From the NCBI RefSeq assembly GCF_056746865.1, contig NZ_CM163382.1: DNA of 64,000 nt; one strand, written 5' to 3'. The notes beneath the pieces were generated by a model. The model worked only from the letters and a program-made list of their open reading frames with translations, made no database searches and was not told where the DNA came from. How positions within the stretch are numbered: position 1 is the first letter of the stretch; every line of letters begins with the position of its first letter. Of this stretch, positions 44,319 to 53,968 are shown in pieces. The translations under genes were made by a program, and so were the position numbers.

Positions 44319-44839
44319 TTTCAGACAGATATTATTTCCGTGAATCCCCCGCCACCTTTCCGGTGCGCGGGGTTTTGTCTTTTTTCACCGGGAATACATG
44401 TATGAATCCGTCTGATGCCATTGAGGCAATTGAAAAACCGCTCTCCTCCCTGCCTTACTCACTTTCCCGTCACATCCTGGAACATCTGCGCAAACTCACC
44501 AGTCACGAACCCGTGCCTGGCATTATGGGTAAAAGCGGGGCCGGTAAATCCTCACTCTGTAATGCGCTGTTTCAGGGGGAGGTCACCCCGGTCAGTGATG
44601 TTCACGCCGGCCCCCGGGAAGTGCAGCGCTTCCGTCTTGCAAAATGGCATCTGAATCGATCGCAGTTTGGCATTCGAATCGATCATGATTTGGCATCCAT
44701 CTCCGATCACAGTTTGGCATCACAATCGATCACGATTTGGCATGCTTCCGATCATTGATTGGCATCCTGCCAGTCACTCCGGGAATTAACTCTTTTCACC
44801 ACAGTCTCCATTGCCGTGTTTAAACCAGTGGAGACGTCA

Positions 44840-46405
44840 ATGTCCAGAAAGAGAAAATCCAGGAGCACTATGGAAACCTGTTTTAAGATTCTTCAGCTCA
44901 AGTTCGACAAGAAGCTGACTAACCGTTGTATCGGACTGACGTTACACATCAGCGCCTCAACCGTTTTTGAGGTTCTTGCCCGCTTCAAAGCCTCTTCTCT
45001 GTCATGGCCATTACCTGCTGATATATCCCATGACACGCTGGAGAAACTCATTTTTCCGCCCAAAGACACCTTTGCATCAGAGCTTGTAATGCCTGACATG
45101 TTGTACCTCGATACGGAAATGAGAAAACCAGGTGTGACGCGGCAACTGTTGTGGATGGAATACAAGGCACAGGCGGGTAACAAAGCGATGGGATACTCGC
45201 ACTTCTGCCGTTGCTACCGGGAGTGGAAAAAAACGCGACGTCTCTCCATGCGCCAGGAGCATCGTGCCGGCGAAAAGCTTTTTATCGACTTCTGTGGTCC
45301 TACGGTTCCTGTTATTAATCCGGACACCGGTGAGATACGCCGCGTGGCAATCTTCGTGGCCGTAATGGGGGCGTCCAACTATACCTACGTTGAAGCGTGC
45401 GAAGGTCAGGACATGATGTCATGGTTAAATGCCCACAGCCGTTGCCTGACCTTCCTGGGCGGCGTACCGAAGCTGCTCATCCCCGATAACCTCAGAAGCG
45501 CAGTGAAAAAGGCCGATCGATATGAGCCTGTCATCAACGACAGTTATCAGGCACTGGCTGAGCACTATGGCACGGTTATCATCCCGGCCCGACCACGCAA
45601 ACCTAAAGATAAACCAAAAGCAGAAAACGGCGTCCTCATCGTCGAACGATGGCTTCTTGCCCGCATCCGTAATGAAACCTTCCACACGCTCAGGGCGCTG
45701 AATGCGCGCCTTAGGGAGTTACTGACAGACATGAATAACCGGCCAATGAAGGGGTACGGCAATCAAACCCGTGCAGAACGCTTCCGCATACTGGATGCGC
45801 CAGCACTCTCTCCGCTGCCTCTGGCACCTTATGAATACACGGAATACAAAGCTGTGAAGGTTGGCCCTGACTACCACGTTGAATATGCCCGTCACTGGTA
45901 CTCCGTTCCACACGAACTGGTCGGTCAGCGTCTGTCACTGAAGGCGGGGCAGTCGGTGGTACAGCTCTGGCACAAGGGGCAGTGTGTGGCGCAACATCCG
46001 CGCAGCACACATGAATATAAACACACAACCAATCCGCTTCACATGCCAGAGCGCCACCGGCAGCACGGGACATGGACACCGGAACGCCTGATCGAGCAGG
46101 GAAAACGTACGGGCCCGTCCACAGGCCGGGTGGTTGAATCCATGCTGAAGGCAAAACCCCATCCGGAACTGGCTTATCGTGCAGTTCTGGGGCTGCTGGC
46201 ACTTCAGAAAAAATACGGCCCGGAACGGCTGGAAAAGGCCTGTTACGTTGCCCTGCACTATAACGCCCCTGACAGACGCTTTATCGACAATCTGCTGCGT
46301 CACCATCGGGAGAACCTGGAGCTTCCATTATCCCGCCAGGGCGAACAACATCCGGCATATGCTTCAGAGCATGAAAACCTGCGTGGTCCGGGCTACTACC
46401 ACTGA
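44840..46405 (+). CDS. istA: IS21-family transposase IstA
   Basis: ORF 44759..46405; start placed at MSRKRKS (44840), uncertain. Confidence 0.8.
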   Translation: MSRKRKSRSTMETCFKILQLKFDKKLTNRCIGLTLHISASTVFEVLARFKASSLSWPLPADISHDTLEKLIFPPKDTFASELVMPDMLYLDTEMRKPGVTRQLLWMEYKAQAGNKAMGYSHFCRCYREWKKTRRLSMRQEHRAGEKLFIDFCGPTVPVINPDTGEIRRVAIFVAVMGASNYTYVEACEGQDMMSWLNAHSRCLTFLGGVPKLLIPDNLRSAVKKADRYEPVINDSYQALAEHYGTVIIPARPRKPKDKPKAENGVLIVERWLLARIRNETFHTLRALNARLRELLTDMNNRPMKGYGNQTRAERFRILDAPALSPLPLAPYEYTEYKAVKVGPDYHVEYARHWYSVPHELVGQRLSLKAGQSVVQLWHKGQCVAQHPRSTHEYKHTTNPLHMPERHRQHGTWTPERLIEQGKRTGPSTGRVVESMLKAKPHPELAYRAVLGLLALQKKYGPERLEKACYVALHYNAPDRRFIDNLLRHHRENLELPLSRQGEQHPAYASEHENLRGPGYYH

Positions 46406-46421
46406 CAGAAGGAACAACAGT

Positions 46422-47177
46422 ATGAGTGATAACCTGTTAAACAAACTGACCCAACTGAAACTCCCGGCGATGGCCGGGAGCCTGATACGGCAGCGGGAAA
46501 CGCCTCAGACCTACGACGAACTGTCGTTCGAGGAAAGGCTGACGCTGCTGGTTGATGACGAGCTTCTGAGCAGGGAAAACAGCCGTGTGGCACGGTTGAG
46601 AAAAAATGCCGGCCTGAAATACCAGGCAACACCGGAAGGGCTGCGCTATCCGGCCTCAAGAGGTCTGCGGGCTGAACAGATGAGAGAACTGCTGAACGGC
46701 CACTACATAACCCACAGGAAAAACCTGCTGATAACCGGTCCGACAGGATGTGGCAAGAGCTGGATAGCCAATGCGCTGGGCGAACAGGCATGTCGACAGA
46801 AACACAGCGTCCGGTACTGTAGAACCGGGCGATTACTGGAACAACTGGCTCAGGGACGTGTTGATGGCAGCTGGCTGAAATATCTGAAACAGTTGCAAAA
46901 AATACAGGTTCTAATCCTGGACGATCTGGGGCTGGAACAGTTAAGTAACGCCCAGTGTAATGACCTTCTGGAGCTCATAGAGGATCGTTACGGACAAAGC
47001 AGCACGATAGTGGTAAGCCAGTTCCCGGTAGATAAATGGCATGGTCTGATGGAGAACCCAACAACAGCAGATGCCATCCTGGACAGACTGGTACATAACT
47101 CACACCGGGTGGTCCTTCAGGGAGAGTCACTGAGGAAAAATCCCCCGGTAGTGGAAAGCAGCGAAAAAACGCGTTAA
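46422..47177 (+). CDS. istB: IS21-family ATP-binding helper IstB
   Basis: start ATG 46422 (MSDNLLNKL); Walker A GPTGCGKS; DExx-like LILDDLG. Confidence 0.85.
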   Translation: MSDNLLNKLTQLKLPAMAGSLIRQRETPQTYDELSFEERLTLLVDDELLSRENSRVARLRKNAGLKYQATPEGLRYPASRGLRAEQMRELLNGHYITHRKNLLITGPTGCGKSWIANALGEQACRQKHSVRYCRTGRLLEQLAQGRVDGSWLKYLKQLQKIQVLILDDLGLEQLSNAQCNDLLELIEDRYGQSSTIVVSQFPVDKWHGLMENPTTADAILDRLVHNSHRVVLQGESLRKNPPVVESSEKTR

Positions 47178-48038
47178 AAAGCGGTAGAAAAAGTTAAGTT
47201 CCCGGTTGATCGAATGGATGCGAATCGCTGATCGGACTTCGATGCCAATCCGTGATCGAATAGAGCGGAATACGCATCCGTCTGAATGGCCATGGTCACA
47301 GCATGGTTATCACTGACCTGCCCGGGGTGGGCGAGAGCCGGGACAGGGATGCAGAGTATGAAGCCCTGTACCGTGACATTCTGCTCGAACTGGACCTGGT
47401 ACTGTGGCTGATTAAAGCCGATGACCGTGCCCTGTCTGTGGATGAGTATTTCTGGCGACACATCCTGCACCGGGGACATCAGCGGGTACTGTTTGTGGTG
47501 ATGCAGGCCGATAAAACGGAGCCCTGCCATGAATGGGATATGGCCGGTATTCAGCCTTCTCCCGCACAGGCACAGAACATTCGCGAAAAAACGGAGGCGG
47601 TATTCCGTCTGTTCCGGCCCGTACATCGGGTTGTTGCCGTATCGGCCCGCACCGGCTGGGAACTGGATACGCTGGTCAGTGCGCTCATGACAGCACTTCC
47701 CGACCATGCCGCCAGTCCCCTGATGACCCGCCTGCAGGACGAGCTGCGCACGGAGTCTGTCCGGTCTCAGGCCCGTGAACAGTTTACCGGTGCGGTGGAC
47801 CGGATATTTGACACGGCGGAGAGCGTCTGCATTGCCTCTGTTGCACGCACGGTTCTGCGCGCCGTCCGTGACTCGGTGGTCTCTGTTGCCCGCGCGGTAT
47901 GGAACTGGATTTTCTTCTGAACCCGGTGGTGATGTACCAGGCTGTTGTTACAGATTTTTAACTCCATGAAAACACTATGCAAACGCAGCCATACCCGGGT
48001 TGTCCCCTTGCGTTGTGTTTCTCAAGTTAATAGAATAC

Positions 48039-48080
48039 ATCGATCGTTACTATCATATCGATCGTTATAAACGATCGTTT
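48039..48080 (+). promoter_or_regulatory. three operator-like repeats with palindromic CGATCG cores upstream of the dynamin-like gene
   Basis: ATCGATCGTTA at 48039 and 48057, AACGATCGTTT at 48070; AGGAAGG RBS at 48124..48130. Confidence 0.45.
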
Positions 48081-48137
48081 GTAGTAAATGACCTCCTCCG
48101 TGGTTGTCATGAAAATGCGTCTTAGGAAGGTTAAATA

Positions 48138-50534
48138 ATGCACGAAAAGAACATCGCCCTGCTTTGTGATGAAGCCGACCGACTTTTGCAACTGAACATT
48201 AATCTGCTCCGGCAAATGGTTGAGGAGCCAGATGTGTTATCTGACAGTAAGAACGAAAACAGACTGCTTTTTGATAAACAGAAAGCACTGAAAAGAATTG
48301 AGGAGCTGGAGGGCGAACAAATCAAAACCGCCCGCAGGGAGATGGTGCTGGCTGTTGTCGGCACGATGAAAGCAGGCAAATCAACCACCATCAACGCCAT
48401 TGTGGGGCAGGAAATTCTGCCTAACCGTAACCGCCCCATGACCTCTGTACCGACGCTCATCCGCCACGTTCCCGGAAAAACTGAGCCGGTTCTCCATCTG
48501 GAACATATTCAGCCTGTCCGCAATTTATTAATCACACTGCAGGAAAAACTCGCCACCCCGGCAGGACAGCAGGTCGCACAGACCCTGCAGCAAACCGGGG
48601 ATACCCGCGAACTGCTGGATATTCTGACGGATGATGGCTGGCTCAAAAATGAATACCACGGGGAGGAGGAAATCTTTACCGGACTGGCATCGTTAAACGA
48701 TCTGGTTCGTCTTGCTGCGGCAATGGGGACTGAATTTCCTTTTGATGAATACGCAGAAGTGCAGAAACTGCCGGTGATCGACGTGGAATTCAGCCATCTG
48801 GTGGGGATGGATGCATGCCAGGGAACACTCACACTGCTGGATACCCCCGGCCCTAATGAGGCCGGACAACCGCAGATGGAAGTGATGATGCGGGATCAAC
48901 TGCAGAAAGCCTCTGCGGTTCTGGCTGTGATGGATTACACCCAGATGAACTCAAAAGCGGATGAAGACGTCCGTAAAGAGCTTAATGCCATTGCTGACGT
49001 ATCAGCCGGCCGCCTGTTTGTACTGGTCAATAAATTTGATGAGAAAGACCGCAATGGCGATGGGGCAGATGCCGTACGCCAGAAAGTTCCGGCAATGCTG
49101 AACAGCGATGTGCTGCCCGCCTCCCGCGTTTATCCCGGATCCTCACGCCAGGCATACCTGGCTAACCGTGCGCTTCATGAGTTACGGAAAAACGGAACCC
49201 TTCCTGTTGATGAAGCCTGGGTCGATGATTTTATCAGAGGTGCCTTCGGTTGCATGAAAAAAGAATACGTCTGTAAAGACAGTGAACTGGCAACTGAAGG
49301 GGCGACAGACCTGTGGGAAGGCTCACTTATCGATCAACTGATAACGGAAGTCATACAGAGCTCACATTCCAGAGCTGCGGCACTGGCGGTTGACTCTGCC
49401 GCCGCAAAACTGATGCAGAATGCAGAAAATATCAGTGAATACCTGTTGTTACGCCATCAGGGGCTACAGCAAAGCATTCAGTCACTGCAGTCGCATATCA
49501 CCAGCCTGCTTGCGGATATCCGGGAAATCGCGGACTGTCAGGAGCAGATGACCACTGATGTCAGAATGGCCATGGAGGAGATCGATACTAAAACCCGGGA
49601 ATTACTGACGGGGGTCTGCACCTCACTGGAAGAGGAGCTGAATGACTATTTCAGAAGCGGTAAACGCAAAGAACAGCAAATGCTGGAGGAAGAAGACGCA
49701 GAACAACGAAGGTCTCAGTCCGGATTATGGGGGAAAATTTCTCAATGGTCCGGTATCAACAACCAGGGCCGGGAGGATTACAGGAAACGAGATTTTGCCC
49801 CGGACAGCCCCGAAATAAAATTCAGTGATCGCAGGGAAGCCCTTGAACTGATGACGCAAATCGAATCGACCGTGACCAGCCTGCACCGTGAGGCTGAAGC
49901 ACAGTTCCGGCCTGAGCTGGAGAAAATCGTCAGCGGGATTGAAACAGGTTTTCGTGGCACGGCCCTGTACGCCACAGAAAACATTGCCGGTCGCATCAAT
50001 GCCCGCCTGGAGGATGAGGGCTTTACCGTAAAAATCAGTTTTCCGGCAGTCAGCCAGTTACAGACCCGGCTCGCGGTAAAAATAAATCTGAGTGCGCTTA
50101 TGGAGGAAAGAACGGAGACCGTCACCCGTCGCCGTCGGCAGAGTGGCGTATGGGGAACCGTTTGTCGATGGTTTGGCACCAGTGACCTGGGCTGGGAAAA
50201 CTATGACGAGGATGTGAGTCGCAGCGTGATCAATATCAACAAGGTCAGAGAGGAAGTTATGTCACTGACCCGGGCATATTTCGGGGAGCTGCAGGCATCC
50301 ATTGAGCAGGATATTAACCAGCCCGTCCGCCAGGAAATCGATGCCTTTTTCTGCGCATTCAGGGAGAAAGTTGAACAACTGCGTAACACGCTGATTCAGA
50401 GCTCTGAAGATCATAAACGCGATCAGCAGGCGCAGGAACGGCTTACCGGGCGACTTCAGGCATTAAATGAAAGGGTTCCTGAGCTCATTACTGACAGTAA
50501 GGCGCTGAGGGAAGAGCTGGAGACAATGCTGTGA
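48138..50534 (+). CDS. dynamin-like GTPase (bacterial dynamin-like protein)
   Basis: 798 aa; G1 GTMKAGKSTTINAIVG, G3 LLDTPGPNE, G4 VLVNKFD; long helical C-terminal half. Confidence 0.85.
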   Translation: MHEKNIALLCDEADRLLQLNINLLRQMVEEPDVLSDSKNENRLLFDKQKALKRIEELEGEQIKTARREMVLAVVGTMKAGKSTTINAIVGQEILPNRNRPMTSVPTLIRHVPGKTEPVLHLEHIQPVRNLLITLQEKLATPAGQQVAQTLQQTGDTRELLDILTDDGWLKNEYHGEEEIFTGLASLNDLVRLAAAMGTEFPFDEYAEVQKLPVIDVEFSHLVGMDACQGTLTLLDTPGPNEAGQPQMEVMMRDQLQKASAVLAVMDYTQMNSKADEDVRKELNAIADVSAGRLFVLVNKFDEKDRNGDGADAVRQKVPAMLNSDVLPASRVYPGSSRQAYLANRALHELRKNGTLPVDEAWVDDFIRGAFGCMKKEYVCKDSELATEGATDLWEGSLIDQLITEVIQSSHSRAAALAVDSAAAKLMQNAENISEYLLLRHQGLQQSIQSLQSHITSLLADIREIADCQEQMTTDVRMAMEEIDTKTRELLTGVCTSLEEELNDYFRSGKRKEQQMLEEEDAEQRRSQSGLWGKISQWSGINNQGREDYRKRDFAPDSPEIKFSDRREALELMTQIESTVTSLHREAEAQFRPELEKIVSGIETGFRGTALYATENIAGRINARLEDEGFTVKISFPAVSQLQTRLAVKINLSALMEERTETVTRRRRQSGVWGTVCRWFGTSDLGWENYDEDVSRSVININKVREEVMSLTRAYFGELQASIEQDINQPVRQEIDAFFCAFREKVEQLRNTLIQSSEDHKRDQQAQERLTGRLQALNERVPELITDSKALREELETML

Positions 50535-51436
50535 CTTCACCATTTATTCAACAAATTGCTGATAACCGGGTATGTCAGGTACTCACCTGTCTTCCTGAAA
50601 AATTTGTGGTTGATTTCGCAAACGGAATCGATGTTGCACAGGAGCATATCCGCACGGCCGGAGAGCGCACGTTCTTCCGGCGTTTAAAAGAGGGGCTGAC
50701 CGGCGAAGGCGCTGCACGGCAGAATGCCATCAATGCGTCGCTTGCACAGGGCGTTGAGGCGTCCCTGCGCTGGCTGACGGAGATGACAACGTCACTTGCC
50801 ACCACAAACTACGCGATTACCCGGGTAAACGACAGGGTCAGTTCACTGGTCAGTGATACAGCCAGGCTGGCGCATTATTCCGCAGATACGCGGGAGCAGT
50901 TACTCACCCTGGCCGATCAGGTTCACCATAAACTGAATCATCTTGAAGAAAAACTCCACCGTGTTGACCAGGTTCAGCGGGCGCAGTTACATCTTGAGCA
51001 GATATTCTCATGGTGGAGCGCCGGGCGATATGCGTCATTTTCCCCTGCCGGACGTTGTTATGTGGCACTTGAAGAGCTTCGCTGGGGCGCGTTTGGTGAT
51101 GTGATACGTCAGAGCGAAACAGGCCAGGTTAACCAGCTACTGGATATTCTCAGACATAAAGCATTAACGCAGATGGCACAGGAGAGTGGCGGTAGTGCAA
51201 CCGTGCGTCTGAACACTCTGGACTGGCTTGGTGGTCAGGGCCGGGAGCAGGCAGATAACGAGTGGCATGACGCGATTAACTGGCTGGGAGACTGGTGCAG
51301 TGAAGAGCAGCATCCGGTGATCTGGTCAACCACGCAGGCTGCAGAACACTTACCGGTTCGCATGCCTCGCCTCTGCTCTGCAGAACGCCTCTCTGAAAGT
51401 ATGGTCGATGAAATATTTCAGAAGGGGGCTGCATGA
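50531..51436 (+). CDS. hypothetical helical protein translationally coupled to the dynamin-like GTPase
   Basis: 301 aa; GTG start overlaps upstream TGA (GTGA at 50531..50534); no recognised motif. Confidence 0.65.
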   Translation: MTSPFIQQIADNRVCQVLTCLPEKFVVDFANGIDVAQEHIRTAGERTFFRRLKEGLTGEGAARQNAINASLAQGVEASLRWLTEMTTSLATTNYAITRVNDRVSSLVSDTARLAHYSADTREQLLTLADQVHHKLNHLEEKLHRVDQVQRAQLHLEQIFSWWSAGRYASFSPAGRCYVALEELRWGAFGDVIRQSETGQVNQLLDILRHKALTQMAQESGGSATVRLNTLDWLGGQGREQADNEWHDAINWLGDWCSEEQHPVIWSTTQAAEHLPVRMPRLCSAERLSESMVDEIFQKGAA

Positions 51437-52503
51437 GTACAGAAATGAAAACGGGGCTGGTGCTGTCCGGTGGCGGGGCGGTGGGCGCTTATCAGGCGGG
51501 AGTGGTTAAGGCACTGGCAGAGTGTGGTACACAGATCAGCATGGTTTCAGGGGCCAGCATTGGCGCATTCAATGGTGCCATTATCGCGGCCTCTCCCGAT
51601 CTGTCAGAAGCTGCCGTACGCCTGGAGGCGCTCTGGGATCATCTGGGGAATAATCAGGTGCTGTCGGTAAACAGATTGGTTTACTTTTCATTGCTGAAAA
51701 AATTGTTCCAGGCAATGAACCTCTGCCAGATCCCCGGACGTGCAGGAGCACTGCTTACGACGCTTCTTCGCCATATATCGACAATCAACGGGTTTGACAA
51801 TCTGATGGCTCAGCCGTTGTTGTCAGATGAGCCCCTGACAGCGCTGATGGATCATTATCTTGATACTGATGCTCTGGCAGACGGGCTACCGCTGTATGTG
51901 TCGCTGTACCCCACAGAAGGGGGCATGCAGGATATTATTGACTGCATTCGTGCTGAACTGGGTGTCGGAACCACGAAAAACGCCGTTTTTCAGCATATCC
52001 AGAGCCTGCCCCGCGGACAGCAGAAAGAGGCTCTGCTTGCGTCAGCCGCGCTGCCCCTGCTGTTCCGTCCCCGTGAGGTTCAGGGGACAATGTTCGGTGA
52101 TGGTGGTATGGGAGGATGGCGAAATATGCAGGGAAATACCCCTGTGACGCCTCTGGTCGATGCCGGATGCAATATGGTGATTGTGACGCATCTGAGTGAG
52201 GGTTCTTTATGGGATCGCCAGGCTTTTCCGGACACCACAATCCTTGAGATCCGTCCCCGGAAAAGGCTGAAATATGCAGGTGATGGTGGCAACAGCGGCG
52301 GTCTGCTCAGTTTTACATCGGCACATACCGACGCCTGGCGTCAGCAGGGCTATGAAGACACGATGCTGGCGATGGAGCATATCCGGAAACCGCTGGCAGC
52401 ACGTCAGGCACTGACCCGGTCAGAGGCGGTATTGCAGAAAAGCCTGGATATAACGGAAGAGGCAGATTTGGCACTGAGAAACGCGATGGCCCGGATTAAA
52501 TAA
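51433..52503 (+). CDS. patatin-like phospholipase
   Basis: 356 aa; GGGAVGAYQAG oxyanion motif, GASIGA (GxSxG) nucleophile, DGG catalytic Asp; ATGA overlap with the upstream gene. Confidence 0.85.
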   Translation: MSTEMKTGLVLSGGGAVGAYQAGVVKALAECGTQISMVSGASIGAFNGAIIAASPDLSEAAVRLEALWDHLGNNQVLSVNRLVYFSLLKKLFQAMNLCQIPGRAGALLTTLLRHISTINGFDNLMAQPLLSDEPLTALMDHYLDTDALADGLPLYVSLYPTEGGMQDIIDCIRAELGVGTTKNAVFQHIQSLPRGQQKEALLASAALPLLFRPREVQGTMFGDGGMGGWRNMQGNTPVTPLVDAGCNMVIVTHLSEGSLWDRQAFPDTTILEIRPRKRLKYAGDGGNSGGLLSFTSAHTDAWRQQGYEDTMLAMEHIRKPLAARQALTRSEAVLQKSLDITEEADLALRNAMARIK

Positions 52504-52833
52504 AGACGCCCCAAAGAAACGCCACCGCCTGTGGTGGTGTTTTTCCTGTCTGGTGTTATTGAAAATATTTTCATATATATATTACCTGAGAGAAAGTTTT
52601 ACCCCTCACCTGTCAATTCACTCACTGGAAATTTAATTATGAAATTACCTGTAAAGTTATTAATGAGCCTTATATCTCTGGTCAGCGTTATTGCACGTGC
52701 CGGGGAATATAAAAATTACAGCCGGGATGAAATAAAATACTGGCGATATACATCATACAAGGGGGGGAAACTTCCGGAAGGTTTCACTGATGAGAAATTT
52801 TCCAGCGCCATTTACAACGGAAGAATATTTACA

Positions 52834-53322
52834 ATGAAACGTTTACATACCCTTATGTTATTTCTGGCGGTTCTGTTCACGGGCTTTAACTTTAACGCAG
52901 AAGCGGCTACCGTAAAACAAGCTCTTAGTTGTAACCCGGAAGCCTGGGCTGAACAACCTGGAGCGTGTCCATCAACGTACGAGTTGTACGAAGGTGACGC
53001 TACCTACAAAGCCGCTATCGACAAAGCATTAAAACCGGTCGGACTGAGCGGCATGTTCGGTAAAGGCGGCTATATGGATGGCCCTGGTGGAGGTATCACG
53101 CCAGTAAACATTAACGGTACAGTCTGGTTCCAGGGCGACGGTTGCAAAGCCAATACCTGCGGCTGGGACTTTATCGTAACACTCTATAACCCAAAAACCC
53201 ATGAAGTTGTTGGCTACCGTTACTTTGGTTTAGATGACCCGGCCTACCTGGTTTGGTTCGGTGAAATTGGCGTGCATGAATTCGCGTATCTGGTGAAAAA
53301 CTACGTAGCTGCGGTTAACTAA
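52834..53322 (+). CDS. periplasmic protein, possibly Ivy-like (lysozyme-inhibitor family)
   Basis: signal peptide MKRLHTLMLFLAVLFTGFNFNAEA; GCKANTCGWDF resembles the Ivy CKPHDCG loop; same frame stays open upstream to 52531. Confidence 0.45.
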   Translation: MKRLHTLMLFLAVLFTGFNFNAEAATVKQALSCNPEAWAEQPGACPSTYELYEGDATYKAAIDKALKPVGLSGMFGKGGYMDGPGGGITPVNINGTVWFQGDGCKANTCGWDFIVTLYNPKTHEVVGYRYFGLDDPAYLVWFGEIGVHEFAYLVKNYVAAVN

Positions 53323-53337
53323 TTTAAGGAGTCTATC

Positions 53338-53748
53338 ATGAAAACTTTTATCAAAACTTTACTCGTTGCTGTAACTATTCTGTTCTCTGTCTTCGCTACT
53401 GCGAAACAAGTAAAACTGCCAAATAACATCAAATACGTTAATACTACAGAAGCGTTTTCCTGTACCGAAATTGACGGTATGAATTGCCAGACAAAGAATC
53501 AGTTCAACTATAAAGATAACAGCTATGTTTTCGTGCTTGAACGTGGTGGTGCCTGGTGCTACGACTACACTGTCTCGGTAGTTAACCTGAAAACCGGGAA
53601 AGCACAAATGATTGAATACGGGGACAATCAACTGTGCTCAGGTAGCAACAAACCGTTCTTCGAAATCAAAAATGGCGTACCGACGGTAGGAGTCATCGAC
53701 ACATCCGGAAAACCTGTCGTTGTAGCCCAGGACAAACTTAAAATCTAA
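53338..53748 (+). CDS. small exported hypothetical protein
   Basis: 136 aa with N-terminal signal peptide and four Cys. Confidence 0.55.
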   Translation: MKTFIKTLLVAVTILFSVFATAKQVKLPNNIKYVNTTEAFSCTEIDGMNCQTKNQFNYKDNSYVFVLERGGAWCYDYTVSVVNLKTGKAQMIEYGDNQLCSGSNKPFFEIKNGVPTVGVIDTSGKPVVVAQDKLKI

Positions 53749-53968
53749 GGAGTAAACCATGCGTTTCTCTGCACATTATTAATATCAAAGGTAAATACAG
53801 CCCCAGCCATTGTTACCGGAAAGCCGCTTAATGCGTGGCTCGCCAGTGAAAGGCCTCTCAGACAATAAACCTTATTCATTTCACCCGTCAGGCCGCGTCT
53901 TCTCCGGGAGACGCGGCTTTTTTCATTTATTGCACCAGTAAATCTTAACCACCGATAAGGAGCAAAGT

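Follow-up and report, generated by a model that had tools for sequence, protein, structure and literature searches.

A predicted antigen 43-type Dam/OxyR phase-variation switch upstream of a dynamin-family and patatin operon in Escherichia coli genomic islands

INTRODUCTION

That Dam and OxyR can make genes phase variable is textbook knowledge, both from the antigen 43 (Ag43) adhesin and from operons of Salmonella that modify the envelope. Here we analysed a stretch of 64,000 nucleotides from contig NZ_CM163382.1 (RefSeq assembly GCF_056746865.1), hereafter the window, in which a 217-bp spacer (positions 47921–48137) separates the 3′ end of a yeeP-like GTPase gene from a dynamin-family gene, and we propose that this spacer probably carries an epigenetic phase-variation switch of the antigen 43 type, operated by Dam and OxyR and driving an operon of five genes.

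At agn43 (flu), OxyR bound over three unmethylated GATC sites represses transcription and blocks Dam, while methylation of the sites blocks OxyR, and the competition between the two proteins after replication yields heritable states that switch at ∼1e-3 per generation irrespective of the redox state of OxyR (PMC13337833, PMC3764049, PMC4872104, PMC2909390, PMC4856963). A single OxyR repressor site has been described in the flu regulatory region (PMC2909390). In the gtr and opvAB systems of Salmonella and P22, GATC pairs spaced 13 bp apart lie in OxyR half-sites, methylation blocks OxyR and heritable ON and OFF states result, and the cargo of both systems alters the cell envelope (PMC2909390, PMC4856963).

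Like agn43, the element in the window occupies the slot after yeeP in a CP4-44-type island and has a homologous promoter with GATCs just 3′ of the −10, a 13-bp spacing between its second and third GATC, and a single predicted OxyR tetramer site lying over all three GATCs in repressor position. It differs from agn43 in its leader, which is ∼95 nt long instead of the ∼200-nt isrC leader with a terminator-like hairpin, and in its cargo, a cytoplasmic or membrane-associated dynamin-like/YjcZ/patatin operon instead of an autotransporter. With cah of enterohaemorrhagic E. coli (EHEC) O157:H7 it shares the yeeP-switch layout, the TTGCGT-17-TAGAAT promoter and the three GATCs; cah differs in that its own first OxyR half-site is poor in the homologous register, and the window is without cah and its leader. 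In gtr and opvAB, three or four half-sites lie upstream of the promoter and are occupied alternatively, with OxyR acting also as an activator, whereas the one tetramer site predicted here over the start corresponds to the repressor-only geometry of agn43.

RESULTS

Three Dam sites lie within one predicted OxyR site

Within the spacer, ATCGATCGTTA is found at 48039–48049 and again at 48057–48067, and AACGATCGTTT at 48070–48080. Repeat II copies repeat I in direct orientation, and repeat III (AACGATCGTT), a palindrome of 10 bp, is the inverted counterpart of repeat II; four of the seven occurrences of CGATCGTT in the 64-kb window fall inside this 40-bp repeat stretch. The self-complementary CGATCG cores are located at 48041–48046, 48059–48064 and 48072–48077, and each contains one Dam site, so that the GATCs start at 48042, 48060 and 48073 with spacings of 18 and 13 bp. 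An earlier sequence-only reading of this DNA had placed the repeats and their cores at these same positions, and its Shine–Dalgarno (SD) sequence AGGAAGG (48124–48130) and ATG (48138) were recovered as well, with a distance of 57 bp from the last repeat to the ATG where it had given about 55 bp.

For three CGATCG cores within 35 bp, the expectation is about 0.001 per window. Bare GATC triples within the same distance are not rare (∼0.9 expected per window, and found in 200 of 300 simulated windows), and so the significance of the cluster derives from its extended cores, its promoter-adjacent position and its homology. The other GATC triple of the window (5695–5728) is intragenic, in coding sequence and without extended cores, and was judged a chance occurrence.

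The OxyR motif of E. coli, ATAGnTnnnAnCTAT-N7-ATAGnTnnnAnCTAT (quoted in PMC13050107; the half-site is also given in PMC2909390), was scored at its 20 specified positions. The 37 bp at 48039–48075 matched 16 of these, the top score among the 63,964 positions of the window, with runners-up of 13/20 at five positions. This predicted OxyR tetramer site is composed of half-site 1 (48039–48053, ATCGATCGTTACTAT), a spacer (48054–48060) and half-site 2 (48061–48075, ATCGTTATAAACGAT); both 15-bp half-sites scored 8/10, and the site encloses all three GATCs. GATC-I (48042–48045) lies in the left element of half-site 1, GATC-II (48060–48063) at the left edge of half-site 2 and GATC-III (48073–48076) in the right element of half-site 2. 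A GATC pair 13 bp apart arises when the outer ATAG and CTAT elements of a half-site read ATCG and CGAT, and the same 13-bp pair lies inside one OxyR half-site in gtr (PMC2909390). In 568 kb of fetched island DNA, all 49 sites that scored at least 15/20 were copies of the dynamin-type or the Ag43 switch.

The homologous site of K-12 flu scored 14/20 in the same register, its half-site 1 reaching 6/10 compared with 8/10 here. The spacing of GATC-I and GATC-II is 18 bp here versus 19 bp in flu and cah, the absent base lying between GATC-I and the CTAT element, and this 1-bp shorter spacer accounts for the better match of half-site 1. An Ag43-family allele from strain 673 has the same 18/13 spacing and an OxyR score of 17/20, and the spacing therefore falls within the natural range of true Ag43 switches. 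One extra, overlapping half-site (48030–48044, 8/10) covers the −10. With a single tetramer of two half-sites over the predicted +1 and nothing upstream of the −35, a switch of the gtr/opvAB type was rejected.

The promoter region is homologous to those of flu and cah

On the plus strand, the predicted −35 (TTGCGT, 48008–48013) aligns with TTGTCC of K-12 flu and TTGCGT of cah and is invariant in 47 natural copies of the element. The predicted −10 (TAGAAT, 48031–48036, plus strand) lies within a TAATAGAAT block that is near-invariant across the family, and a single singleton change was found in it among those copies. By homology with the TTGTCC-17-TAGAAT promoter of K-12, which was called by the promoter scan, the two hexamers are separated by 17 nt. 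The annotated 5′ end of K-12 isrC, the agn43 leader RNA, aligns with the G of GATC-I, and the start is therefore predicted at about 48042 (48042–48043, plus strand), 6–7 nt past the −10; the coordinates of this start and of the OxyR footprint were derived from K-12 annotation and reviews.

Eight sequences were aligned, namely three dynamin-type alleles, K-12 flu, two cah loci, the Ag43-family allele and a locus of Citrobacter amalonaticus. With a mean column identity of only 72–73%, the alignment retained the TTG of the −35 in seven of the eight sequences, its T-G being invariant in all eight, and three further elements were invariant throughout: the TAATAGA-T block with the −10, ATCGATCGTT at GATC-II, and CGATCG at GATC-III. 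GATC-I was present in seven sequences and missing only from the dynamin-type allele of BCE049. The sequence motif of the repeats is thus conserved in homologous loci. By BLAST, a weak match (76% identity) was obtained to the yeeP-cah spacer of O157:H7 strain TR01. The homology to the agn43/cah leader ends 3′ of GATC-III and is followed by the last ∼43 bp that precede the dynamin gene in the cah-containing arrangement; what distinguishes the two arrangements is therefore whether they contain the leader and the autotransporter.

The predicted 5′ leader of ∼95 nt (48044–48137, plus strand) folded at −26.3 kcal/mol (z = −1.7) and includes a hairpin formed by GATC-II and GATC-III at 48059–48077, which was flagged as terminator-like and is followed by TTTGTAGT. 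Further downstream, CCTCCTCC (48091–48098), 26 nt 5′ of the SD, is predicted to pair with it, a pairing by which the translation start of the dynamin gene might possibly be masked. The CCTCC part of the CCTCCTCC stretch is also found in the cah-containing arrangement. An Rfam scan of 46000–50000 (E ≤ 1) matched no family; an IsrC-like leader, in particular, was not detected, as would be expected if the agn43 leader has been lost.

Natural alleles retain the Dam sites

The 47 copies comprised RefSeq loci and 42 metagenomic copies, the latter retrieved through an invariant 28-mer that lies 3′ of the repeats. The switch lay directly 5′ of the dynamin gene in every copy, and 43 of 219 columns were variable. 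All three GATCs were retained in 45 copies, the 12 GATC columns showing just two singleton losses; GATC-I and GATC-III were each present in 46 copies and GATC-II in all 47. The C that precedes GATC-II was replaced by T in seven copies (loci L015, L023, L027, L034, L038, L039 and L051), giving TGATCG, which breaks CGATCG and leaves the GATC intact. Such alleles favour the Dam sites rather than the hexamer palindrome as the conserved unit, as judged from the sequences. The Dam sites are supported more strongly by their conservation in paralogues as distant as those of flu, cah and Citrobacter than by the variation among the 47 copies.

The two losses were found in BCE049 (L008 4119–4155), where GATC-I reads AATC and the −10 reads TAGATT, and in a metagenome contig (L049), where GATC-III reads TATC and the OxyR match rises to 17/20. 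In these variant alleles, and in those with TGATCG, switching may be altered or locked.

Distribution of the element and exchange of its cargo

The island of the window occupies the chromosomal site of CP4-44 in K-12, flanked by tmaR-yeeA-sbmC, and carries the operon in place of flu; the order in K-12 is yeeP′, the spacer annotated with isrC, and flu/agn43, inside prophage CP4-44. Among 5,426 complete E. coli genomes, the 217-bp junction was found at 94–100% identity in 1,985, including UTI89, and the dynamin gene in 2,478 at a total of 2,909 places, of which the window-type junction accounted for 2,205; up to four places occurred per genome in this collection. Strain 2009EL-2071 (O104:H4) carries the locus as well. 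With several copies per genome, independently switching copies could coexist in one cell.

In O157:H7 TR01, yeeP and the spacer are followed by cah, 110 bp, and the dynamin and RdcB-like(-patatin) genes. In the stretch that separates cah from the dynamin gene of TR01 (L002 6001–9331), neither promoter-like nor terminator-like sites were detected, and transcription from the one switch may run through cah into the dynamin operon of this strain.

An exact-pattern scan of one genome per species, too stringent for tracing the family through different genera, gave two matches only. The match in Citrobacter amalonaticus (L004 931–978) contains TAATAGAAT and three GATCs with 19/13 spacing and an OxyR score of 14/20, and lies about 90 bp 5′ of an unrelated small open reading frame (ORF) that encodes a signal peptide and matches no NCBIfam model, which suggests that the switch has been re-used for other cargo outside E. 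coli. The other match was on an E. coli-like contig labelled as a Collinsella metagenome-assembled genome (L005 1131–1178, minus strand), a label that probably reflects contamination; there, a cah-type switch with most of its leader is joined to island genes (a yeeU/DUF-type ORF) and the autotransporter is missing. The cargo found at the switch is Ag43 or Cah alone, the dynamin operon with or without Cah, or the small secreted protein of Citrobacter, which is evidence of a modular yeeP-proximal switch.

The downstream operon and its surroundings

The first gene, on the plus strand as are all those described here, is a dynamin-family GTPase of 798 codons (48138–50534), a paralogue of CrfC/YjdA/RdcA according to its full-length NCBIfam CrfC match (E = 1e-166, below the curated cut-off) and RefSeq. 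It is followed, with 4-nt overlaps at each stop, by a gene for a YjcZ/RdcB-family protein (50531–51436; Pfam YjcZ PF13990, E = 4.7e-70; RefSeq) and by a patatin-like phospholipase gene (51433–52503) recognized by RefSeq and by two weak matches, to the RssA-like N terminus of NCBIfam and to a phospholipase effector of PADLOC. Genes 4 (52639–53322) and 5 (53338–53748) are two small ORFs that encode hypothetical proteins in RefSeq, gave no match in a Pfam search, and have homologues in the five-gene cluster of E. coli MP1. A strong terminator-like hairpin (53890–53919 in an element at 53890–53929, plus strand), with a 13-bp stem of which eight pairs are GC and a T run, stands after gene 5 and precedes a DUF932 gene, a position that fits the five-gene unit seen by RNA-seq in MP1; a weak one (52523–52539) is located directly 3′ of the patatin gene. 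The two hairpins suggest partial and then full termination of the unit.

The first two genes are full-length homologues of the core pair crfC/yjdA (rdcA)-yjcZ (rdcB) of K-12. They are paralogues only, below the NCBIfam cut-off, and the operon copies differ from the core pair in being island-borne and coupled to a patatin phospholipase. The amino-acid identity to the core pair is about 30% (PMC12922286). The core pair is not known to be under a Dam/OxyR switch. PADLOC did not call Eleos/LeoA-LeoBC, giving a marginal LeoBC match (E = 9e-5, with no stretch that passed alone) and weak phospholipase-effector matches, and neither PADLOC nor NCBIfam placed the operon in any known defence system. An Ag43/Cah autotransporter locus was rejected, the downstream gene being a dynamin-family GTPase with no autotransporter between switch and operon.

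Upstream of the spacer lies the 3′ part of the yeeP-like GTPase gene (47303–47920, plus strand), annotated as a GTPase family protein in the RefSeq record of an identical locus and present in the ORF list. Over its full span (47048–47920) the gene is disrupted in the window, with stops in translation within the first ∼85 codons. An intact yeeP-like gene of 873 nt is annotated in the RefSeq genome with the identical locus, and the copies of K-12, UTI89 and MP1 are broken too. Some 3.3 kb 5′ of the switch, where a fragment of an AAA-ATPase gene ends, about five tandem 23-bp units were observed (44645–44766), each with a GATC (mostly ATCGATCA) followed by TTTGGCAT; these repeats could be iteron-like or protein-binding.

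Expression of the operon in E. coli MP1

Two isogenic strains of E. coli MP1 that had been derived separately and tagged differently, one with and one without prophage Kapi1, were compared by RNA-seq in a 2026 study, and the five genes SID94_19700–19720 were the most strongly up-regulated set in both media (PMC12922286). The operon was higher in the prophage-carrying strain, which the authors read as prophage-island crosstalk; they called its regulation undescribed, and phase variation went unmentioned (PMC12922286). When located, this cluster proved to comprise the genes for the dynamin, RdcB-like and patatin proteins and two hypothetical genes. It lies directly 3′ of a yeeP pseudogene and of a spacer, likewise 217 bp long, in which the promoter recurs together with three GATCs spaced 18 and 13 bp apart. 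Of the genes on either side, neither the GTPase gene nor the DUF932 gene belongs to the regulated set of MP1, which fits a promoter in the spacer and a terminator after gene 5. The difference between the strains would fit that between an ON and an OFF lineage, a fit that falls short of proof; for agn43, colony picking is a known pitfall (PMC3764049). MP1 carries two copies of switch plus operon (L052 13002–17572, minus strand, and L056 26783–31365, plus strand), in island 8 and PAI-aspV. The two copies are 94–97% identical, and the PAI-aspV copy also has the switch.

DISCUSSION

The locus is homologous to agn43, has three GATCs just 3′ of its promoter and, by prediction, an OxyR site in repressor position over all of them. 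Since all sequence determinants of agn43 are found here, the same mechanism is proposed for the dynamin operon, a reading that we hold to be probable. A sigma-70 promoter, TTGCGT-17-TAGAAT, would fire from about 48042, and a single OxyR tetramer site (48039–48075) with the three Dam GATCs inside it would extend over and downstream of the start. On unmethylated GATCs, host OxyR would be bound, block transcription and shut Dam out, giving a heritable OFF state; if Dam methylated the sites after replication before OxyR rebound, OxyR would be excluded and the promoter would be active, giving a heritable ON state. What such a switch would control is a dynamin-like GTPase, a YjcZ/RdcB-like protein, a patatin-like phospholipase and two small proteins, and not an autotransporter adhesin. 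Homology, motifs, positions, conservation and distribution are visible in the DNA itself, and from them a start site at GATC-I, binding by OxyR, its dependence on methylation and switching are inferred.

Several observations weigh against this proposal. The −35 is weak (3/6), and the promoter scan called an overlapping TTAATA-18-TATCAT rather than the TTGCGT/TAGAAT pair. The spacer between GATC-I and GATC-II is 1 bp shorter than that of K-12 flu. The OxyR match is better than that of agn43, and this could leave the switch strongly OFF-biased or locked OFF. The 47 copies are too little diverged to prove selection on the GATCs, with no non-singleton change in the 12 columns versus ∼1.6 expected. 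Moreover, both MP1 copies were reported to be up together, which could point to a trans-acting cause, although the two copies are 94–97% identical and the authors themselves flag multi-mapping (PMC12922286).

The spacer might be inherited agn43/cah DNA that does not switch, with an ordinary promoter that is constitutive or permanently repressed by OxyR and shows no heritable bistability. The arrangement in TR01 suggests such a history, in which the operon may once have followed an autotransporter and reached the switch when cah and the cah leader were lost; K-12 flu has a different leader and a different spacing of GATC-I and GATC-II, the 16/20 OxyR match could lock the promoter OFF, and one GATC is lost in some alleles. 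Yet the −35, the −10 and the three GATCs are retained in 45 of 47 independent copies and in 1,985 genomes, the spacing recurs in a bona fide Ag43 allele, and the large difference between isogenic MP1 strains argues both against a dead promoter and against uniform expression, which leaves this explanation unlikely. The sequence-only reading had instead seen three operators for a dedicated dimeric repressor, by which the operon is kept off until a signal arrives. Its view of a protein-binding region that controls the downstream operon stands, as does its remark that no regulator gene adjoins the repeats, the regulator being predicted here as OxyR, encoded elsewhere in the host; what is not supported is the equivalence of the three sites, whose cores hold the Dam GATCs of one predicted 37-bp OxyR site. 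A dedicated repressor, whether encoded by island, phage or host, could draw on the self-complementary cores, on the perfect 10-bp palindrome of repeat III and on the higher expression in the prophage-carrying MP1 strain, read by its authors as crosstalk (PMC12922286). Against it speak the homology of the region to a known OxyR/Dam site, the 18- and 13-bp spacings, which fit two OxyR half-sites and not three equal operators, the natural alleles that break CGATCG while retaining GATC, and the lack of a regulator gene beside the repeats. We consider it very improbable, and the analogy with agn43 leads us to expect a stochastic, heritable ON/OFF switch set by competition of Dam and OxyR and not a release by a signal (PMC13337833, PMC3764049, PMC2909390).

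As the main explanation of the repeats, control at the RNA level is very improbable too. The GATC-II/III hairpin (48059–48077), terminator-like and followed by the weak U tract in TTTGTAGT, together with masking of the SD through its predicted pairing with CCUCCUCC, could act as an attenuator or in translational control. The fold z-score is only −1.7, however, the stem is short (8 bp, four GC pairs) and the T tract broken, palindromic half-sites with GATCs in them yield a hairpin automatically, and an RNA element leaves GATC-I and the match to the OxyR consensus unexplained. A role at the RNA level is weakly supported and would be at most an added layer on the Dam/OxyR switch.

The type of switch proposed here is classical and its mechanism is not new; the unusual part is the cargo, an intracellular dynamin-like/phospholipase module and not a surface structure. 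Literature searches retrieved no paper linking OxyR/Dam or an agn43 switch to a dynamin operon, and this cargo appears to be undescribed under such a switch. The membrane-remodelling and lipase module is possibly a costly system against phages or envelope stress. From the distribution of the junction, expression of the operon is probably confined to part of the population in about a third of E. coli strains. A broader generalization, offered tentatively and with more doubt than confidence, is that the yeeP-proximal switch serves as a portable phase-variation slot of CP4-44-type islands and makes the dynamin/lipase module phase variable in ∼37% of E. coli.

The prediction is sharp and bears on the design of experiments on this operon, and it provides an alternative reading and a concrete mechanism for the top RNA-seq result of the MP1 study (PMC12922286). 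If it is true, the ‘lysogeny effect’ on the operon in MP1 would be explained by ON and OFF lineages; and with a widespread, often multi-copy operon being on in a subpopulation only, the results of bulk knock-out, RNA-seq and phage-challenge experiments would depend on the colony. The switch would then be modular and re-usable for cargo other than surface structures, and epigenetic bet-hedging would extend from such structures to an intracellular dynamin-like machine.

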